From an uncultured Candidatus Saccharibacteria bacterium (GTDB lineage: Bacteria; Patescibacteriota; Minisyncoccia; Phycocordibacterales; CAZXUM01), in assembly GCA_964644005.1 (NCBI GenBank), contig CAZXUM010000001.1, positions 1 to 26,201 on the forward strand: a stretch of 26,201 nucleotides of DNA, in the 5' to 3' direction. Below the pieces are notes generated by a model. That model was not told the DNA's origin. It saw only the letters and a program-made list of their open reading frames with translations, and did no database searches. Below, piece after piece: positions 1,719 to 5,612 of this stretch (the stretch's first letter is position 1; each line of letters starts with the position of its first letter). The position numbers and the translations under genes were made by a program.

Positions 1719-4262
1719 TTACTCCTTCAGCGTCCAGCCGTCTCGGGTGAATGAGTCGAGCTGTTTATATTTAATATCTTTCGTTTCACCATTTTTGGTG
1801 ATAGTAACTTTCTCATTTCTGCCTTTTTCGACCGCAGTAGGAGCAAGAGTTGGTGTTGATCGAAGTGATAATTTTTGTTCAGGCTGCATGTGTGAGGCGT
1901 GGAGAGTTGCAGGTGCGAGCACATCGGGTGTCGGCTTTCCTTCAACAGCTTCGAGTTTTACGTTTTTGAGAATCTCAATTGATTGAGTGACAATACTCTC
2001 CTGCATATCCTTGAACATAGTAAGTCCATCTTTTTTATACTCAACTAATGGATCACGCTGCCCATATGCACGGAGGTGGACGCTTGAGCGCAAGTACTCC
2101 ATTGTTTCGAGGTGCTCAACCCAAAACATATCAATTGTTTGGAGCAAAATACGGCGAGCAACTTGCCGAAAACCGTCATCGCCTAATGTCGTTCGTTGCG
2201 CTGCAATAATTGCTTTCGCCTCATCGGTGAGATGTCCGAGCGCAAACGCGTGGGTAATAGCAGCATCAAGACCCTCACCTTGTGCAAAGAGCAGTTCGCG
2301 GCGGCGGCCATACACGATAGCGCGCTGGTGGTTCATGACGTCATCATATTCGAGGGTGTGTTTGCGAGAATCGAAGTGGAACCCTTCAATTTTTGTTTGA
2401 GCAGTTTCAAGTGAGCGCGTGATGAAGTAATTTTGAATCGGCTCATCTTCAGGAATGTTAAATCGTCCCATTATTTTTTTAATGGTGTCAGCAGCAAAAA
2501 TGCGCATGAGATCGTCTCCAGTTGAAACGTAAAACTGTGTTCCACCTGCGTCACCTTGGCGTCCAGCGCGGCCGCGGAGCTGGTTATCGATACGACGAGC
2601 CTCATGACGTTCAGTACCAACAACATACAGTCCACCCAGCGCCTTTACTGCTTCGTATTCTTCTTTAGTTGCCTGTGTGCCACCAAGTTTAATGTCGACG
2701 CCACGACCAGCCATGTTTGTGGCAATAGTCACCGAACTACGTTTTCCGGCATCAGCAACAATTTGTCCTTCTTGCTCGTGGTTTTTAGCGTTCAACATGT
2801 TGAACTGTACTCCCTCACGTTTCAAGTATTCACCGAGCAACTGGTTTTTCTCAATCGACACTGTTCCAATGAGTACTGGCTGACCTTTTTTCTGAAGTTC
2901 CTTTACTTTTCGTGAGAGCGCTTTAAATTTTCCTGATTCGTTTTGAAAGATGAGGTCATTCGCATCAACACGAACAACCGGACGATGTGTCGGGATAGAT
3001 ACTACGTTCAATCGGTATACTTTCATGAACTCTTCCGCAGAGGTTGTTGCGGTACCCGTCATACCCGAGAGCTTTTTGTACATACGGAAATAGTTTTGGT
3101 ATGTAATCGAAGCGAAGGTACGTGATTCTTGCTGGACAGCGACGCCTTCTTTTGCCTCAATTGCCTGGTGCAATCCTTCTGACCATCGACGACCCGGTTG
3201 CAAGCGACCGGTAAACGTATCGACAATGACAATTGTGCCGTCTTTCACCACGTAATCAACTTCGTTTTTATACAGTGCTTTTGCTTTTACCGCAGTTTCA
3301 AGGTGGTGCACGTACTTAATACCCTTGTCGGTGTAGATATTTTCAACACCGAGAGCCTTTTCTGTTTTGGTAATACCGTTATCAGTGAGCGCAATTGAGC
3401 GAAATTTTTCATCAACGGTGTAGTCATCCTCCTTTACCAACGAGTCTGCAATCTGGGAAAATTGCGCGTAGAGCGAACCTGAATCTTCGGTCGGTGAAGA
3501 AATAATGAGCGGCGTACGCGCTTCATCAATCAAAATAGAATCGATTTCATCGACAATAGCGTAGTGGTATTCGCGCTGGCGAACTTTGTCAGTATGGTAT
3601 TCGAGGTTGTCACGGAGATAGTCGAAACCGAACTCGCTATTTGTTCCGTAGGTAATATCGGCACGGTAGGCATCTGGTCGAGCTACCGGTCGGAGAAATT
3701 CGTGCACTACTTTATAACCTCCCGCAGCATCACGAGTTTTGTCGAGCTCAGTATGTGCAGCGTCATATATATATGAAGCATCGTGGTTAAGCACTGCACT
3801 GGTGAGACCAAGTGCGTTATAGATTTGTCCCATCCATACTGTATCACGTCGCGCGAGGTAATCGTTGACTGTAATGACGTGGACACCTTTTCCTTCGAGC
3901 GCATTGAGATATGCAGGAAGTGTCGCAACGAGCGTTTTTCCTTCACCGGTTTTCATTTCAGCAATAGCTCCTGAGTTGAGAATTGCACCACCAATAAGTT
4001 GGACATCGAAATGACGTTGGTTGAGCGTGCGGCGTGCAGCCTCACGAACAGCAGCAAACGCTTCGGCTTTAATGTCTTCGGGTGTCTTCCCTGAAGCGAG
4101 TTCTGCCTTAAACTCGTGGGTTTTTGTCTTGAGCTGTTCGTCAGTGAGCGCCTGCATTGCAGGTTCAAAGCTGTTCACTTTTTCTACAAAACCCTTATAT
4201 CGCTTTACAATACGGCTCGATTCATCACCAAAGATACGGGCAAATGTGGTCGCAATTGACAT
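1719..4262 (-). CDS. secA: Preprotein translocase ATPase SecA
   Basis: MKTGEGKT Walker A, DEIDSILIDEARTPLIIS, TNMAGRGVDI, RRIDNQLRGRAGRQGD; 847 aa. Confidence 0.99.
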   Translation of the reverse strand: MSIATTFARIFGDESSRIVKRYKGFVEKVNSFEPAMQALTDEQLKTKTHEFKAELASGKTPEDIKAEAFAAVREAARRTLNQRHFDVQLIGGAILNSGAIAEMKTGEGKTLVATLPAYLNALEGKGVHVITVNDYLARRDTVWMGQIYNALGLTSAVLNHDASYIYDAAHTELDKTRDAAGGYKVVHEFLRPVARPDAYRADITYGTNSEFGFDYLRDNLEYHTDKVRQREYHYAIVDEIDSILIDEARTPLIISSPTEDSGSLYAQFSQIADSLVKEDDYTVDEKFRSIALTDNGITKTEKALGVENIYTDKGIKYVHHLETAVKAKALYKNEVDYVVKDGTIVIVDTFTGRLQPGRRWSEGLHQAIEAKEGVAVQQESRTFASITYQNYFRMYKKLSGMTGTATTSAEEFMKVYRLNVVSIPTHRPVVRVDANDLIFQNESGKFKALSRKVKELQKKGQPVLIGTVSIEKNQLLGEYLKREGVQFNMLNAKNHEQEGQIVADAGKRSSVTIATNMAGRGVDIKLGGTQATKEEYEAVKALGGLYVVGTERHEARRIDNQLRGRAGRQGDAGGTQFYVSTGDDLMRIFAADTIKKIMGRFNIPEDEPIQNYFITRSLETAQTKIEGFHFDSRKHTLEYDDVMNHQRAIVYGRRRELLFAQGEGLDAAITHAFALGHLTDEAKAIIAAQRTTLGDDGFRQVARRILLQTIDMFWVEHLETMEYLRSSVHLRAYGQRDPLVEYKKDGLTMFKDMQESIVTQSIEILKNVKLEAVEGKPTPDVLAPATLHASHMQPEQKLSLRSTPTLAPTAVEKGRNEKVTITKNGETKDIKYKQLDSFTRDGWTLKE

Positions 4263-4295
4263 TCGGCCATACTAACATATAACACTGTCGATAAA

Positions 4296-4330
4296 CAAAA
4301 ATCACTCCGTTAAAAACGGAGTGATTTTTG
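4296..4330. terminator. Bidirectional intrinsic terminator after the basic peptide gene
   Basis: Perfect 16-bp inverted repeat CAAAAATCACTCCGTT-aaa-AACGGAGTGATTTTTG. Confidence 0.88.
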
Positions 4331-4357
4331 CCGAACGTCGAGCGTTCGATTGAAAGA

Positions 4358-4453
4358 CTAACGACGAGATTTGCGTTTGGTAGCTTTCTTTTTTGTAGCC
4401 TTGCGCTTTGTTGTCTTCTTTTTTGTAGCCTTGCGAGCTTTTTTCTTTGCCAT
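4358..4453 (-). CDS. 31-aa Lys/Arg-rich histone H1/protamine-like peptide (below ORF-track cutoff)
   Basis: ATG(4453)..TAG(4358): MAKKKARKATKKKTTKRKATKKKATKRKSRR; 14 K + 5 R, no acidic residues; has its own promoter and terminator. Confidence 0.82.
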   Translation of the reverse strand: MAKKKARKATKKKTTKRKATKKKATKRKSRR

Positions 4454-4526
4454 TGTTTTTTGTCGACGAGCGACAGTTACAATTATTCAAAGAACAACTT
4501 CGACCCGAGTATTGTTCTTGTACTTA

Positions 4527-4555
4527 ATTATCAGATAGATGTGCGCATGTGTGAA
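4527..4555 (-). promoter_or_regulatory. Sigma70-type promoter TTCACA-N17-GATAAT for the basic peptide gene
   Basis: Minus strand TTCACA catgcgcacatctatct GATAAT; each hexamer 5/6 to consensus, 17-nt spacer. Confidence 0.65.
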
Positions 4556-4582
4556 TAGATTTTTGTGCGCATGTGTGGATAA
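4540..4582 (-). promoter_or_regulatory. 24-bp-period direct repeat carrying two DnaA boxes (perfect TTATCCACA at 4574-4582; CTATTCACA at 4550-4558)
   Basis: TGTGCGCATGTGTG at 4540-4553 and 4564-4577; plus strand TGTGGATAA is the reverse complement of the canonical DnaA box. Confidence 0.6.
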
Positions 4583-4601
4583 GTTTTTTTTCAAAATTAT
4601 T

Positions 4602-5612
4602 TTACGAAATGTATTGCACTTCAGTTTCAAGATGTATATTTGTTTTTTCGTGCACAACAGTGCGCAATTTTTCTGCGAGTGTTCGAACATTGTACGCAGT
4701 TGCGTGTCCATGATTTACAATAACGAGCGCTTGTTTTTCGTAGATACCTGCGTCACCTTCGCGCATGCCCTGCGCATTGCATATTTTGTCGAGTATCCAC
4801 CCCGCAGAAACTTTTACCATTGTGTGTGCAAAGGGAAACGATGGAATACCCGGGTAGGCTTTTTGTAATTGCGCCAGTGCTGCCCAGGCGATAACCGGAT
4901 TTTTAAAGTACGATCCTGCGGTGCCGAGCGCTGTCCAATCAGGTAATTTCGCGCGACGGATAGCGATAACTGTGTCACGCAATGATTGCGGCGAGAAGTA
5001 CGCGAGATTGTTTTTTTGTGCGTACTCCGCAATATCTTTGTATGACGTATCAAGCATCGCAGTGCGTGAAAGGGCGAATATCACTTTCACAATGACCCAC
5101 TCTTTGCCAGCTACTGTTTTAAAAAAACTACCTCGATACGTAAACGCACATTCGGCGTTTGAGAATGTTTTGTGTTCACCGGTAGTAGTATGTACACACA
5201 GAACGTGCGTAATAAACGCGCACACTTCTCTGCCGTATGCACCAATATTTTGTATTGGTGCTGCACCAACAGTTCCCGGAATGAGTGACAGATTCGCTAA
5301 CTCTCCGTATCCCTTAGCAACAACATATGCAACAAAATCATCCCATACCTCTCCGGCAGCAACAGTAAACGTGTCGCCCTGCTGCTCAATACCAGTGAGT
5401 GCAATGTGCATCACGAGCCCATCAAATCCTTCGTCAGCAATAAGGACATTTGAACCACCGCCGAGTACACATAATTTCCAGTTATTATTGTGTGCCCACA
5501 AACAGGCACACTGCACTTCTTCAATTGTTTTTACGGTACAAAAGTGCCGAGCGGGGCCTCCAATACGAAACGTTGTGTAGTCTTTAAGCGGCGTGTGCTG
5601 CAATAGTTGCAT
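4602..5612 (-). CDS. murB: UDP-N-acetylmuramate dehydrogenase
   Basis: TTFRIGGPA, LGGGSNVL, IPGTVGAAPIQNIGAYG, GSYFKNP, ALVIVN, LETEV. Confidence 0.97.
   Translation of the reverse strand: MQLLQHTPLKDYTTFRIGGPARHFCTVKTIEEVQCACLWAHNNNWKLCVLGGGSNVLIADEGFDGLVMHIALTGIEQQGDTFTVAAGEVWDDFVAYVVAKGYGELANLSLIPGTVGAAPIQNIGAYGREVCAFITHVLCVHTTTGEHKTFSNAECAFTYRGSFFKTVAGKEWVIVKVIFALSRTAMLDTSYKDIAEYAQKNNLAYFSPQSLRDTVIAIRRAKLPDWTALGTAGSYFKNPVIAWAALAQLQKAYPGIPSFPFAHTMVKVSAGWILDKICNAQGMREGDAGIYEKQALVIVNHGHATAYNVRTLAEKLRTVVHEKTNIHLETEVQYIS

Follow-up and report, generated by a model that had tools for sequence, protein, structure and literature searches.

A conserved micro-gene of ultra-small Paceibacteria-type bacteria, commonly found upstream of secA and predicted to encode a tail-only polycation

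A micro-gene of 31 codons lies between murB and secA in the window (the whole stretch of 26,201 nucleotides that was analysed), and sequence comparison indicates that the same micro-gene occurs across the class of ultra-small (CPR/Paceibacteria) bacteria. The peptide is most likely a tiny polycation that coats DNA or RNA. Judged by comparison among genomes, the micro-gene is real, its peptide is under selection, its module is conserved and it is transcriptionally separate from secA. The best explanation, which we hold with moderate confidence, is a minimal, tail-only polycation that binds nucleic acid, with DNA as the likeliest target and with synthesis linked to DnaA. In the proposed scheme, a sigma-70-type promoter with a DnaA-box-like site at a fixed upstream distance would drive a monocistronic unit (4290-4582, minus strand). 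The mRNA would consist of a leader of ~67 nt with a conserved GGTCG motif, the reading frame for 31 residues and a strong intrinsic terminator. The product would be nothing but tail, with a charge of ~+19, and would bind nucleic acid electrostatically and non-specifically, neutralising its charge. The chromosome would be its most likely target, in the manner of the C-terminal tails of histone H1 or of chlamydial Hc2.

The source genome comprises 611 kb in 117 contigs, with an estimated completeness of 93% and a GC content of 47%. The closest named relatives of its SecA come from MAGs labelled Candidatus Nealsonbacteria, Paceibacteria and Adlerbacteria, which identifies the source as a Parcubacteria/Paceibacteria-type CPR bacterium. 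The genes murB and secA and the micro-ORF between them are all encoded on the minus strand, and groES-groEL lie past murB. The stop codon of the micro-ORF is separated from the secA start by 95 nt on the same strand, and this position is conserved. The features of the unit and its two neighbours are listed in Table 1.

Table 1. Features of the micro-gene unit and of the genes on either side of it (positions in the window)
Feature	Position	Strand	Details
murB	4602..5612	(-)	Upstream neighbour; context gene outside the micro-gene unit
Perfect DnaA-box consensus, TTATCCACA	4574..4582	(-)	Starts 50 nt upstream of the start of the -10 hexamer
24-nt tandem duplication of the box region	4533-4556 and 4557-4580	(-)	Copies 83% identical
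Sigma-70-type promoter	4527..4555	(-)	-35 TTCACA, 17-nt spacer, -10 GATAAT; 10/12 matches
5' leader, ~67 nt	4454..4520	(-)	Hairpin 4518-4510 / 4498-4490; GGTCGAA in the loop, 4505-4499
Micro-ORF, 31 codons and TAG stop	4358..4453	(-)	ATG-started; coding 4453..4361, TAG 4360..4358
Internal tandem duplication, 30 nt (10 codons, two pentapeptides)	4371-4400 and 4401-4430	(-)	Copies 83% identical
Small 6-bp hairpin, then intrinsic terminator, then T-run	4290..4348	(-)	Small hairpin 4348-4332
secA extended -10, TG-t-TAGTAT	4269..4277	(-)	Ends 6 nt before the secA ATG at 4262; leaderless-type
secA	1719..4262	(-)	Downstream neighbour; context gene outside the micro-gene unit

The composition of the predicted peptide is extreme. 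A sequence-only reading of this DNA had counted 19 basic residues among 31 and no acidic or aromatic ones, and translation of 4358..4453 gives the same result, with 14 lysines, 5 arginines and no D, E, F, W or Y. Apart from Met1, the non-basic residues are Ala, Thr and Ser only. The chain can be described as about four pentapeptides, in each of which three basic residues follow two small ones. It closes with a C-terminal Arg cluster (Ser-Arg-Arg). No hydrophobic residue besides Met1, no signal peptide, no TM segment and no amphipathic segment were found in the 31 residues. The exact 18-nt repeat described in the same reading is present and forms the core of the larger tandem duplication at 4371-4430. 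At 0.61, the K+R fraction of the micro-ORF is the highest among the 8172 ORFs of at least 25 aa in the genome, the runner-up reaching 0.43, and a search of all other ORFs of the source genome for a comparable polybasic segment returned none.

The signals around the reading frame are those of an independent transcription unit. The sequence-only reading had also proposed a promoter, a leader of ~65 nt containing a hairpin and a perfect 16-bp terminator. All three were recovered: the promoter agrees with the sigma-70 consensus at the level given in Table 1, the leader measures ~67 nt with its hairpin, and the terminator is a perfect 16-nt inverted repeat with a 3-nt loop (arms 4330-4315 / 4311-4296). 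The terminator hairpin begins 26 nt past the stop codon of the micro-ORF, and its folding energy is -30.8 kcal/mol (z = -6.9 vs shuffles). Every homologue examined has a hairpin of the same kind (A-run, GC-stem, T-run) 4-65 nt after its stop codon, with a median contiguous stem of 13 bp. The upstream regions of relatives cannot otherwise be aligned, and they share a (G/C/A)ATAAT -10 with a TTG-containing -35. The leader is A-rich before the ATG and carries no Shine-Dalgarno sequence. Its GGTCG motif was found in 28 of 30 order-level leaders and in 12 of 13 leaders from other orders or named MAGs. RNAalifold, run on a MAFFT alignment of 28 leaders, predicted zero conserved pairs. A stem search anchored on the motif in the same number of leaders gave a modest excess (8.0 vs 6.75 bp, with 8/28 at p <= 0.1). 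The leader hairpin of the source genome is real, and these two tests did not show it to be conserved. Rfam returned nothing at the gathering threshold, and only noise for 4250-4620 at E up to 5.

The promoter is marked by a site that resembles a DnaA box. The 9-mer TT[AT]TCCACA, the DnaA-box consensus, occurs in 27 of 30 homologous upstream regions, and in every case 48-51 nt separate its start from that of the -10 hexamer. In the window, the proximal copy of the 24-nt duplication holds a second box with one mismatch, CTATTCACA (4550-4558), which overlaps the -35. When the locus is compared with DnaA-regulated promoters, a consensus box, TTATNCACA, is found at a conserved promoter position. 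The motif TTATCCACA occurs 14 times in the source genome vs ~4.7 times expected, and together with its variants it clusters in the dnaA-dnaN spacer (contig C22). This enrichment and clustering indicate that the motif behaves as a true DnaA box in this organism. Synthesis from the micro-gene is probably tied to the status of DnaA. The same motif also stands upstream of several unrelated promoters in the source genome, such as that of a pilin gene, so the box marks a small regulon rather than a DNA-specific function. A replication origin at 4574-4582 was considered and rejected, because the cluster of boxes lies on another contig, between dnaA and dnaN.

Homologues had to be collected by gene position, since searches by sequence or profile are nearly blind to a low-complexity peptide of this size. 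The flanks of murB or secA were scanned for polybasic ORFs, with these two genes as anchors in each genome. With murB as the anchor, 12 of 23 other families of the same order had an ORF of 22-63 aa with at least 52% K+R just downstream and on the same strand; this count used a simple first-start-codon filter, which missed at least one more carrier (G026). Clustering of the flanking ORFs revealed a conserved block consisting of a TPR/O-antigen-ligase-like protein, murB, the peptide and secA. The peptide gene is most closely tied to secA, which follows it directly on the same strand in 17 of 21 cases, including genomes in which murB is not adjacent. With secA as the anchor, 18 of 29 other same-order families had a same-strand micro-ORF no more than 800 nt upstream, and a nineteenth locus (G042) holds a long version broken by an assembly gap. 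A crude search for the N-terminal pattern Met-Ala-(x)-Lys-Lys-Lys located the gene elsewhere in 3 of 10 genomes that lack it at secA. The relocated copies (G025, G035 and G044) keep the box, the promoter, the GGTCG-type motif (AGTCGAA in G025) and the terminator, which indicates that the module, and not the neighbourhood, is the conserved unit. In 7 of the 29 sampled families no copy was found by these two limited searches, the scan of the secA flank and the crude N-terminal pattern. In other orders of the class, shorter versions of 14-24 aa were found at 5 of 28 loci anchored on secA, and versions of 24-43 aa at 3 of 28 loci anchored on murB. A scan of ~60 secA loci from phyla outside the CPR detected a polybasic micro-ORF in none of them. 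A check of synteny in relatives, which had been proposed along with the first description of the peptide, has therefore turned out in its favour: most sampled families of the order have a polybasic micro-ORF that either separates murB from secA or directly precedes secA.

The collection comprises 45 homologues (33 same-order families, 7 genomes of other orders of the class and 6 named MAGs labelled Paceibacteria, Parcubacteria or Patescibacteria). They range from 13 to 63 aa with a median of 30, and 49-68% of their residues are K or R. Their residues are drawn almost entirely from K, A, R, T, V, S and P, and no acidic or aromatic residue was observed in any of the 45 sequences. Three basic residues end the chain in 41 of them, and 30 start with Met-Ala. 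The autocorrelation of basic and non-basic positions has a period of 4-5. The basic positions are nearly invariant, the spacers vary among small residues and the length changes by gain or loss of repeats. Near-invariant basic positions combined with variable spacers and length are the hallmark of proteins that bind polyanions electrostatically, such as H1 tails and chlamydial Hc2 (PMC2848022), and set the family apart from tiny ribosomal proteins, which have to fit a fixed rRNA pocket. The evidence favours a small and probably abundant polycation, under purifying selection for its pattern of charge rather than for a fold.

Conventional searches reflect the difficulty of detecting such a peptide. 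A whole-genome HMM search recovered it in 3 of 41 genomes. A profile built from 3 sequences had matches in 15 of 201 genomes, and one built from 17 sequences matched 1 of 301 genomes at the level of the phylum. No match to the peptide was found by hmmscan against Pfam-A and NCBIfam at E up to 10 or by phmmer against PDB sequences, and a search of 1.84 billion representative proteins gave 0 matches. Six exact sequences had no entry in a collection of 15 billion proteins. An alignment-based search for homologous proteins had a single match, which proved to be a mis-started ORF of 54 aa. Literature searches found no description of this peptide family.

Could the micro-ORF be non-coding, either as an element of purine-rich RNA or DNA or as an ORF that arose by chance in A-rich spacer DNA? 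Stop codons are rare in several frames of purine-rich sequence, gene callers have all passed the ORF over, and the blanks in the family, structure, representative-protein and exact-sequence searches would all fit such an origin. Several lines of evidence speak against it. All 45 copies begin with ATG, end in frame with TAA or TAG and are followed by a terminator, and the control loci outside the CPR contain no such ORF. The peptide composition is constant while the GC content of the ORF spans 0.26-0.49 across homologues. Substitutions between families concentrate at synonymous sites. The source genome (G000) and two further families (G101 and G099) share ~85% peptide identity; between G000 and G101, 29 aligned codons comprise 9 identical, 16 synonymous and 4 non-synonymous ones, and G099 gives a similar picture. 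For scale, the N-terminus of SecA is 57-69% identical across the order. The choice and the order of lysine codons are also non-random. The peptide family uses 284 AAG vs 179 AAA codons, and the long ORFs of the source genome use 2268 AAG vs 4835 AAA. The longest A-runs in the ORFs of the family sum to 173 vs a permutation mean of 205, and none of 1000 codon permutations gave a value as low. Ribosomes reportedly slide on poly(A) tracks (an observation that is said to come from Koutmou and colleagues in 2015), so an arrangement of AAA and AAG that keeps A-runs short is what would be expected of an ORF that needs faithful translation. The missing Shine-Dalgarno sequence is no argument against translation, because the genome largely lacks such sequences (an SD-like word precedes only 9% of 322 long ORFs) and throughout carries a T(-12) A(-11) T(-7) signal ahead of its start codons, as is typical of leaderless mRNAs. 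A non-coding origin is accordingly so improbable as to be hardly credible, and from codon order and substitution pattern we infer that the micro-ORF is translated in vivo. The earlier suggestion that it is probably a real gene in its own transcription unit is strengthened by counterparts that keep position, strand and composition across dozens of families.

The position of the micro-ORF also calls for comparison with regulatory leader peptides. A uORF for secA (or hpf) might act as a SecM-like arrest peptide or, with the adjoining terminator, as an attenuator that senses Lys or Arg. Most genomes have the gene right before secA in the same orientation, a position like that of the small uORFs found directly upstream of sec or yidC genes in Sec-monitoring systems. 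Two amino acids dominate the peptide and a terminator hairpin follows within 4-65 nt, which is the classical layout of an attenuator; in the source genome, 19 Lys and Arg codons are followed by the terminator. The downstream genes, however, have promoters of their own. An extended -10 precedes secA in the source genome, similar TGnTAnAAT elements occupy the same place in relatives, and its leaderless type fits the genome-wide signal before start codons. This promoter indicates that the peptide gene is a separate unit and not a leader peptide of secA. Across genomes, secA or hpf has a -10 of its own past the terminator, often 6-10 nt ahead of the ATG. Relocated copies retain promoter, leader and terminator next to unrelated downstream genes, and the copy in G099 is inverted relative to secA. 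The 5' arm of the terminator has no conserved alternative pairing (median P = 0.33 with the 3' arm withheld). Attenuation or antitermination was rejected, since no consistent pairing of the 5' arm was found and the downstream genes are separately transcribed.

In Sec-monitoring arrest peptides, an N-terminal signal peptide or TM segment has to be joined by a spacer longer than 30 aa to a conserved C-terminal arrest motif (PMC10987492). By these criteria (PMC10987492) the peptide does not qualify, as its 31 residues contain no signal peptide, no TM segment and no spacer of the necessary length. Its likeness to SecM, VemP, MifM and Apc/Apd is limited to a small ORF of unknown function before a sec gene on the same strand; unlike them, it has neither a signal or TM segment at its N-terminus nor a long spacer or a known arrest motif. 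The codon arrangement, moreover, avoids the poly(A) tracks that would promote stalling or sliding. A SecM-like monitor was rejected on these grounds, and because the strong terminator and the separate secA -10 intervene and leave no coupling through a shared mRNA. A role as a leader peptide of either kind is very improbable.

Among known proteins, the closest in design is chlamydial Hc2. The sequence-only reading had likened the peptide to H1 tails and to the chlamydial condensing proteins Hc1 and Hc2; the likeness stands for composition and repeat design, as described for Hc2 (PMC2848022), and fails at the level of profiles, where no Pfam or NCBIfam model of Hc1 or Hc2 was matched. Hc2 is built of lysine-rich pentamers with A, V, T or P spacers, varies in length by repeat number and binds both DNA and RNA; it is 165-237 aa long, with conserved regions that flank the repeats (PMC2848022). 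The peptide family shares with Hc2 (HctB; Hc2-like proteins occur in Bordetella, Burkholderia and Herminiimonas) the consecutive pentamers rich in K and R with A, T, V or P spacers, a repeat region without acidic residues and variation in length by gain or loss of repeats. Electrostatic binding of polyanions is expected of Hc2 (PMC2848022) and is predicted for the peptide. The pentamers of Hc2 have 2 basic and 3 other residues, whereas those of the peptide have 3 basic and 2 other residues and number only ~4. In contrast to Hc2 with its conserved non-repeat flanks, the peptide family has a length of 13-63 aa and no non-repeat domain. Hc2 is under late-developmental control, whereas the Paceibacteria gene has a DnaA-box promoter. 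Held against the Hc2/HctB family (PF07382), the peptide has the pentamer repeats and lacks the profile match, the length of 165-237 aa and the flanks. With no profile match, no flanks and a tenth of the size, it is an analogue of Hc2 and of H1 tails and not a member of the Hc2 family.

Similar comparisons can be made with eukaryotic proteins. The C-terminal domain of linker histone H1 and sperm protamines are likewise intrinsic polycations of low complexity, rich in K, A, T, S and P, and act by charge neutralisation and condensation of DNA. The peptide differs from them in being bacterial and stand-alone, in having no globular domain and in being dominated by lysine, unlike the arginine-rich protamines. 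No evidence of homology between the peptide and H1 or protamines was found. Within bacteria, AlgP (AlgR3) of Pseudomonas is another polycation with lysine/alanine repeats, H1-like with KPAA repeats. It differs in being large, in having an N-terminal domain and in being linked to the spacing of polyphosphate granules (PMC9239181).

DNA is tentatively favoured as the main target of the peptide because of the DnaA-box promoter, the Hc2-like design and the place of DNA as the dominant polyanion in ultra-small cells. Cryo-tomography of ultra-small groundwater CPR cells, reportedly by Luef and colleagues in 2015, is said to have revealed few ribosomes and densely packed DNA, and it is from these two features that DNA is taken to be the dominant polyanion there. 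The role of a nucleoid compactor, proposed when the peptide was first described, is one that we infer from charge alone. The source genome encodes HU, so the peptide would supplement and not replace the standard nucleoid protein. The presence of HU also means that the cell is not short of such a protein, a point against the main reading. A second point against it is that a polycation has no less affinity for rRNA, polyphosphate or acidic lipids than for DNA. Other orders of the class have the arrangement peptide - hpf (Ribosomal_S30AE) - secA, with a gap of 50-130 nt between the first two; the position of hpf directly downstream of the peptide gene points to the ribosome and is a third point against the main reading. 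Two further points against it are the presence of the box before unrelated promoters and the seven sampled families in which the limited searches found no copy. In the source genome hpf is located on contig C38, and hpf is absent from the slot between peptide and secA throughout the order of the source genome.

The arrangement with hpf bears on the main rival to DNA, an association with ribosomes or rRNA. The peptide could be a tiny ribosomal protein like bS22, bL37 or bTHX, or an RMF-like accessory of hibernation that neutralises the charge of rRNA. Its composition would suit a tiny basic ribosomal protein, and so would a monocistronic gene with a strong promoter and terminator; bL34, bL36, bS22, bL37, bTHX and RMF share with it a size of ~25-55 aa, a high content of K and R and small monocistronic genes. 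Parcubacterial ribosomes have been described as remodelled (PMC9297842), and Hc2 too binds RNA and represses translation (PMC2848022). The tiny ribosomal proteins, however, have a fixed length and non-repetitive, position-specific sequences, whereas the peptide differs freely from family to family in length (13-63 aa) and in repeat number, unlike proteins of a fixed pocket. Where hpf follows the peptide gene, it has its own promoter past the peptide's terminator, and it is missing from this slot in the entire source order. We know of no DnaA-box promoter as a feature of ribosomal protein genes, which also counts against a ribosomal role. Taken together, a ribosomal association is the less likely reading, and a serious rival to DNA binding.

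Two specific ribosomal hypotheses were tested and rejected. The peptide is not a replacement of bL34, since bL34 (PF00468) is present in 189 of 201 genomes of the order, including all carriers of the peptide that were checked. The search with PF00468 found bL34 in relatives as a gene distinct from that of the peptide; in the 93%-complete assembly of the source genome bL34 was not found. Nor is the peptide a detached C-terminal tail of uS19. The C-terminal tail specific to uS19 of Parcubacteria is a segment of mixed charge (A/K/E), and it was present in 29 of 29 genomes checked, with or without the peptide.

A main target other than nucleic acid, such as polyphosphate granules, acidic phospholipids at the membrane or the SecA interface, or anionic cell-wall precursors, is improbable. 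The charge of the peptide is non-specific, its neighbours include envelope genes (murB, secA and the TPR/O-antigen-ligase-like protein), and the H1-like AlgP is associated with polyP granules (PMC9239181). Against such a target, hydrophobic and amphipathic segments and a secretion signal are missing from the peptide, nothing in the present data connects it with polyphosphate, and the module persists where it has moved away from murB and secA.

Bolder forms of the preferred reading, in which the peptide binds mainly DNA, are doubtful. In these, the peptide would be a 'bacterial protamine' under DnaA control and the main agent that neutralises and compacts the chromosome in ultra-small cells, it would form with HPF an ancient pair for dormancy, and GGTCG would be a site of post-transcriptional control. 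If the dormancy pair were real, DNA and ribosomes would both be shut down, in analogy to the roles of Hc1 and Hc2 in chlamydial elementary bodies.

The absence of the peptide from the protein collections queried and the literature searched suggests that it is a hitherto undescribed tail-only, H1-like polycation of bacteria, whose gene keeps a DnaA-box promoter and a leader motif across genomes. New elements of the present analysis are the gene order peptide-hpf-secA in other orders of the class, the evidence for translation from codon order, the fixed spacing between the box and the -10, the retention of the whole module in relocated copies, the leaderless promoter of secA and the two rejected ribosomal hypotheses. 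Annotation should take heed as well, since genes of this kind are lost to length cut-offs and low-complexity filters, which also cause false N-terminal extensions of neighbouring ORFs. If the peptide is made, its gene would be among the most conserved lineage-specific genes of a huge, uncultivated class, and would be missing from essentially all protein databases. If the preferred reading holds, the peptide would be a concrete and synthesisable candidate for the packing or neutralisation of DNA in cells with genomes of 0.5-1 Mb and very few ribosomes. The fixed DnaA-box promoter would offer a testable link between the initiation of replication and the state of chromatin in organisms that have very few regulators.

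Loci from the other orders of this class place the Lys/Arg-rich micro-gene in the arrangement (murB) - micro-gene - hpf - secA, and the hpf product at these loci is a Ribosomal_S30AE protein of ~120-140 aa. The placement of hpf directly before secA is likewise a known arrangement in Firmicutes. The leaders of nearly all micro-gene copies share an invariant GGTCG(A), after which ATTGTT or ATTATT often comes next. The homologous leaders showed no conserved structure.

Perfect TTATCCACA boxes are present 14 times in the 611-kb genome containing the window (G000), as compared with ~4.7 expected. The dnaA-dnaN spacer, which carries a cluster of boxes and variants, is likely oriC. Unrelated genes, among them one for a type IV pilin-like protein, also have single boxes 27-41 nt upstream of their -10 elements, and this placement suggests a small DnaA regulon in G000. 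Shine-Dalgarno sequences are nearly absent from the same genome (9% of 322 long ORFs). Its start codons are preceded by T at -12, A at -11 and T at -7, a signal suggesting that leaderless mRNAs are common. One example is secA, with a TAGTAT that ends 6 nt before its ATG.

Features located in the window, in G000 (contigs C) and at loci (L) of related genomes
Feature	Location	Remark
Micro-gene - hpf - secA order	L058, L077/L115, L079, L119, L121, L124, L149, L170	
Leader GGTCG(A)	window 4499-4505	minus strand
secA TAGTAT and start	window 4260-4277	
Box cluster and variants	C22:6600-7120	L279, dnaA-dnaN spacer
Further boxes	C9:10535, C16:6073/8754/8774, C27:939, C40:1849, C51:3773	
uS19	C103:894-1133	G000
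Long micro-gene array	L091, ~900-1330	G042, secA orientation

Two ribosomal proteins were also considered. The protein bL34 (PF00468) is present in 189 of the 201 genomes of the order and was not found in the G000 assembly (117 contigs, 93% complete), where its absence is probably an assembly gap. A conserved C-terminal extension of uS19, ~25 residues of mixed-charge Ala/Lys/Glu, was present in all 29 genomes checked (L220-L248) and matches the Parcubacteria-specific uS19 tail described in PMC9297842.

Unusual micro-gene copies exist in two relatives of the same order. The copy in G042 has a much longer repeat array broken by a run of N, and assemblers apparently collapse or break on these repeats. 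In G099 (L013) the entire module is inverted, so that it diverges from secA and converges with a murB broken into two ORFs. The sole database protein recovered for the family, P0001 (ENA, 54 aa), is a gene call starting too far upstream, the C-terminal part of which is a 23-residue polylysine peptide of the family, and it shows how gene callers mis-handle the micro-gene family.
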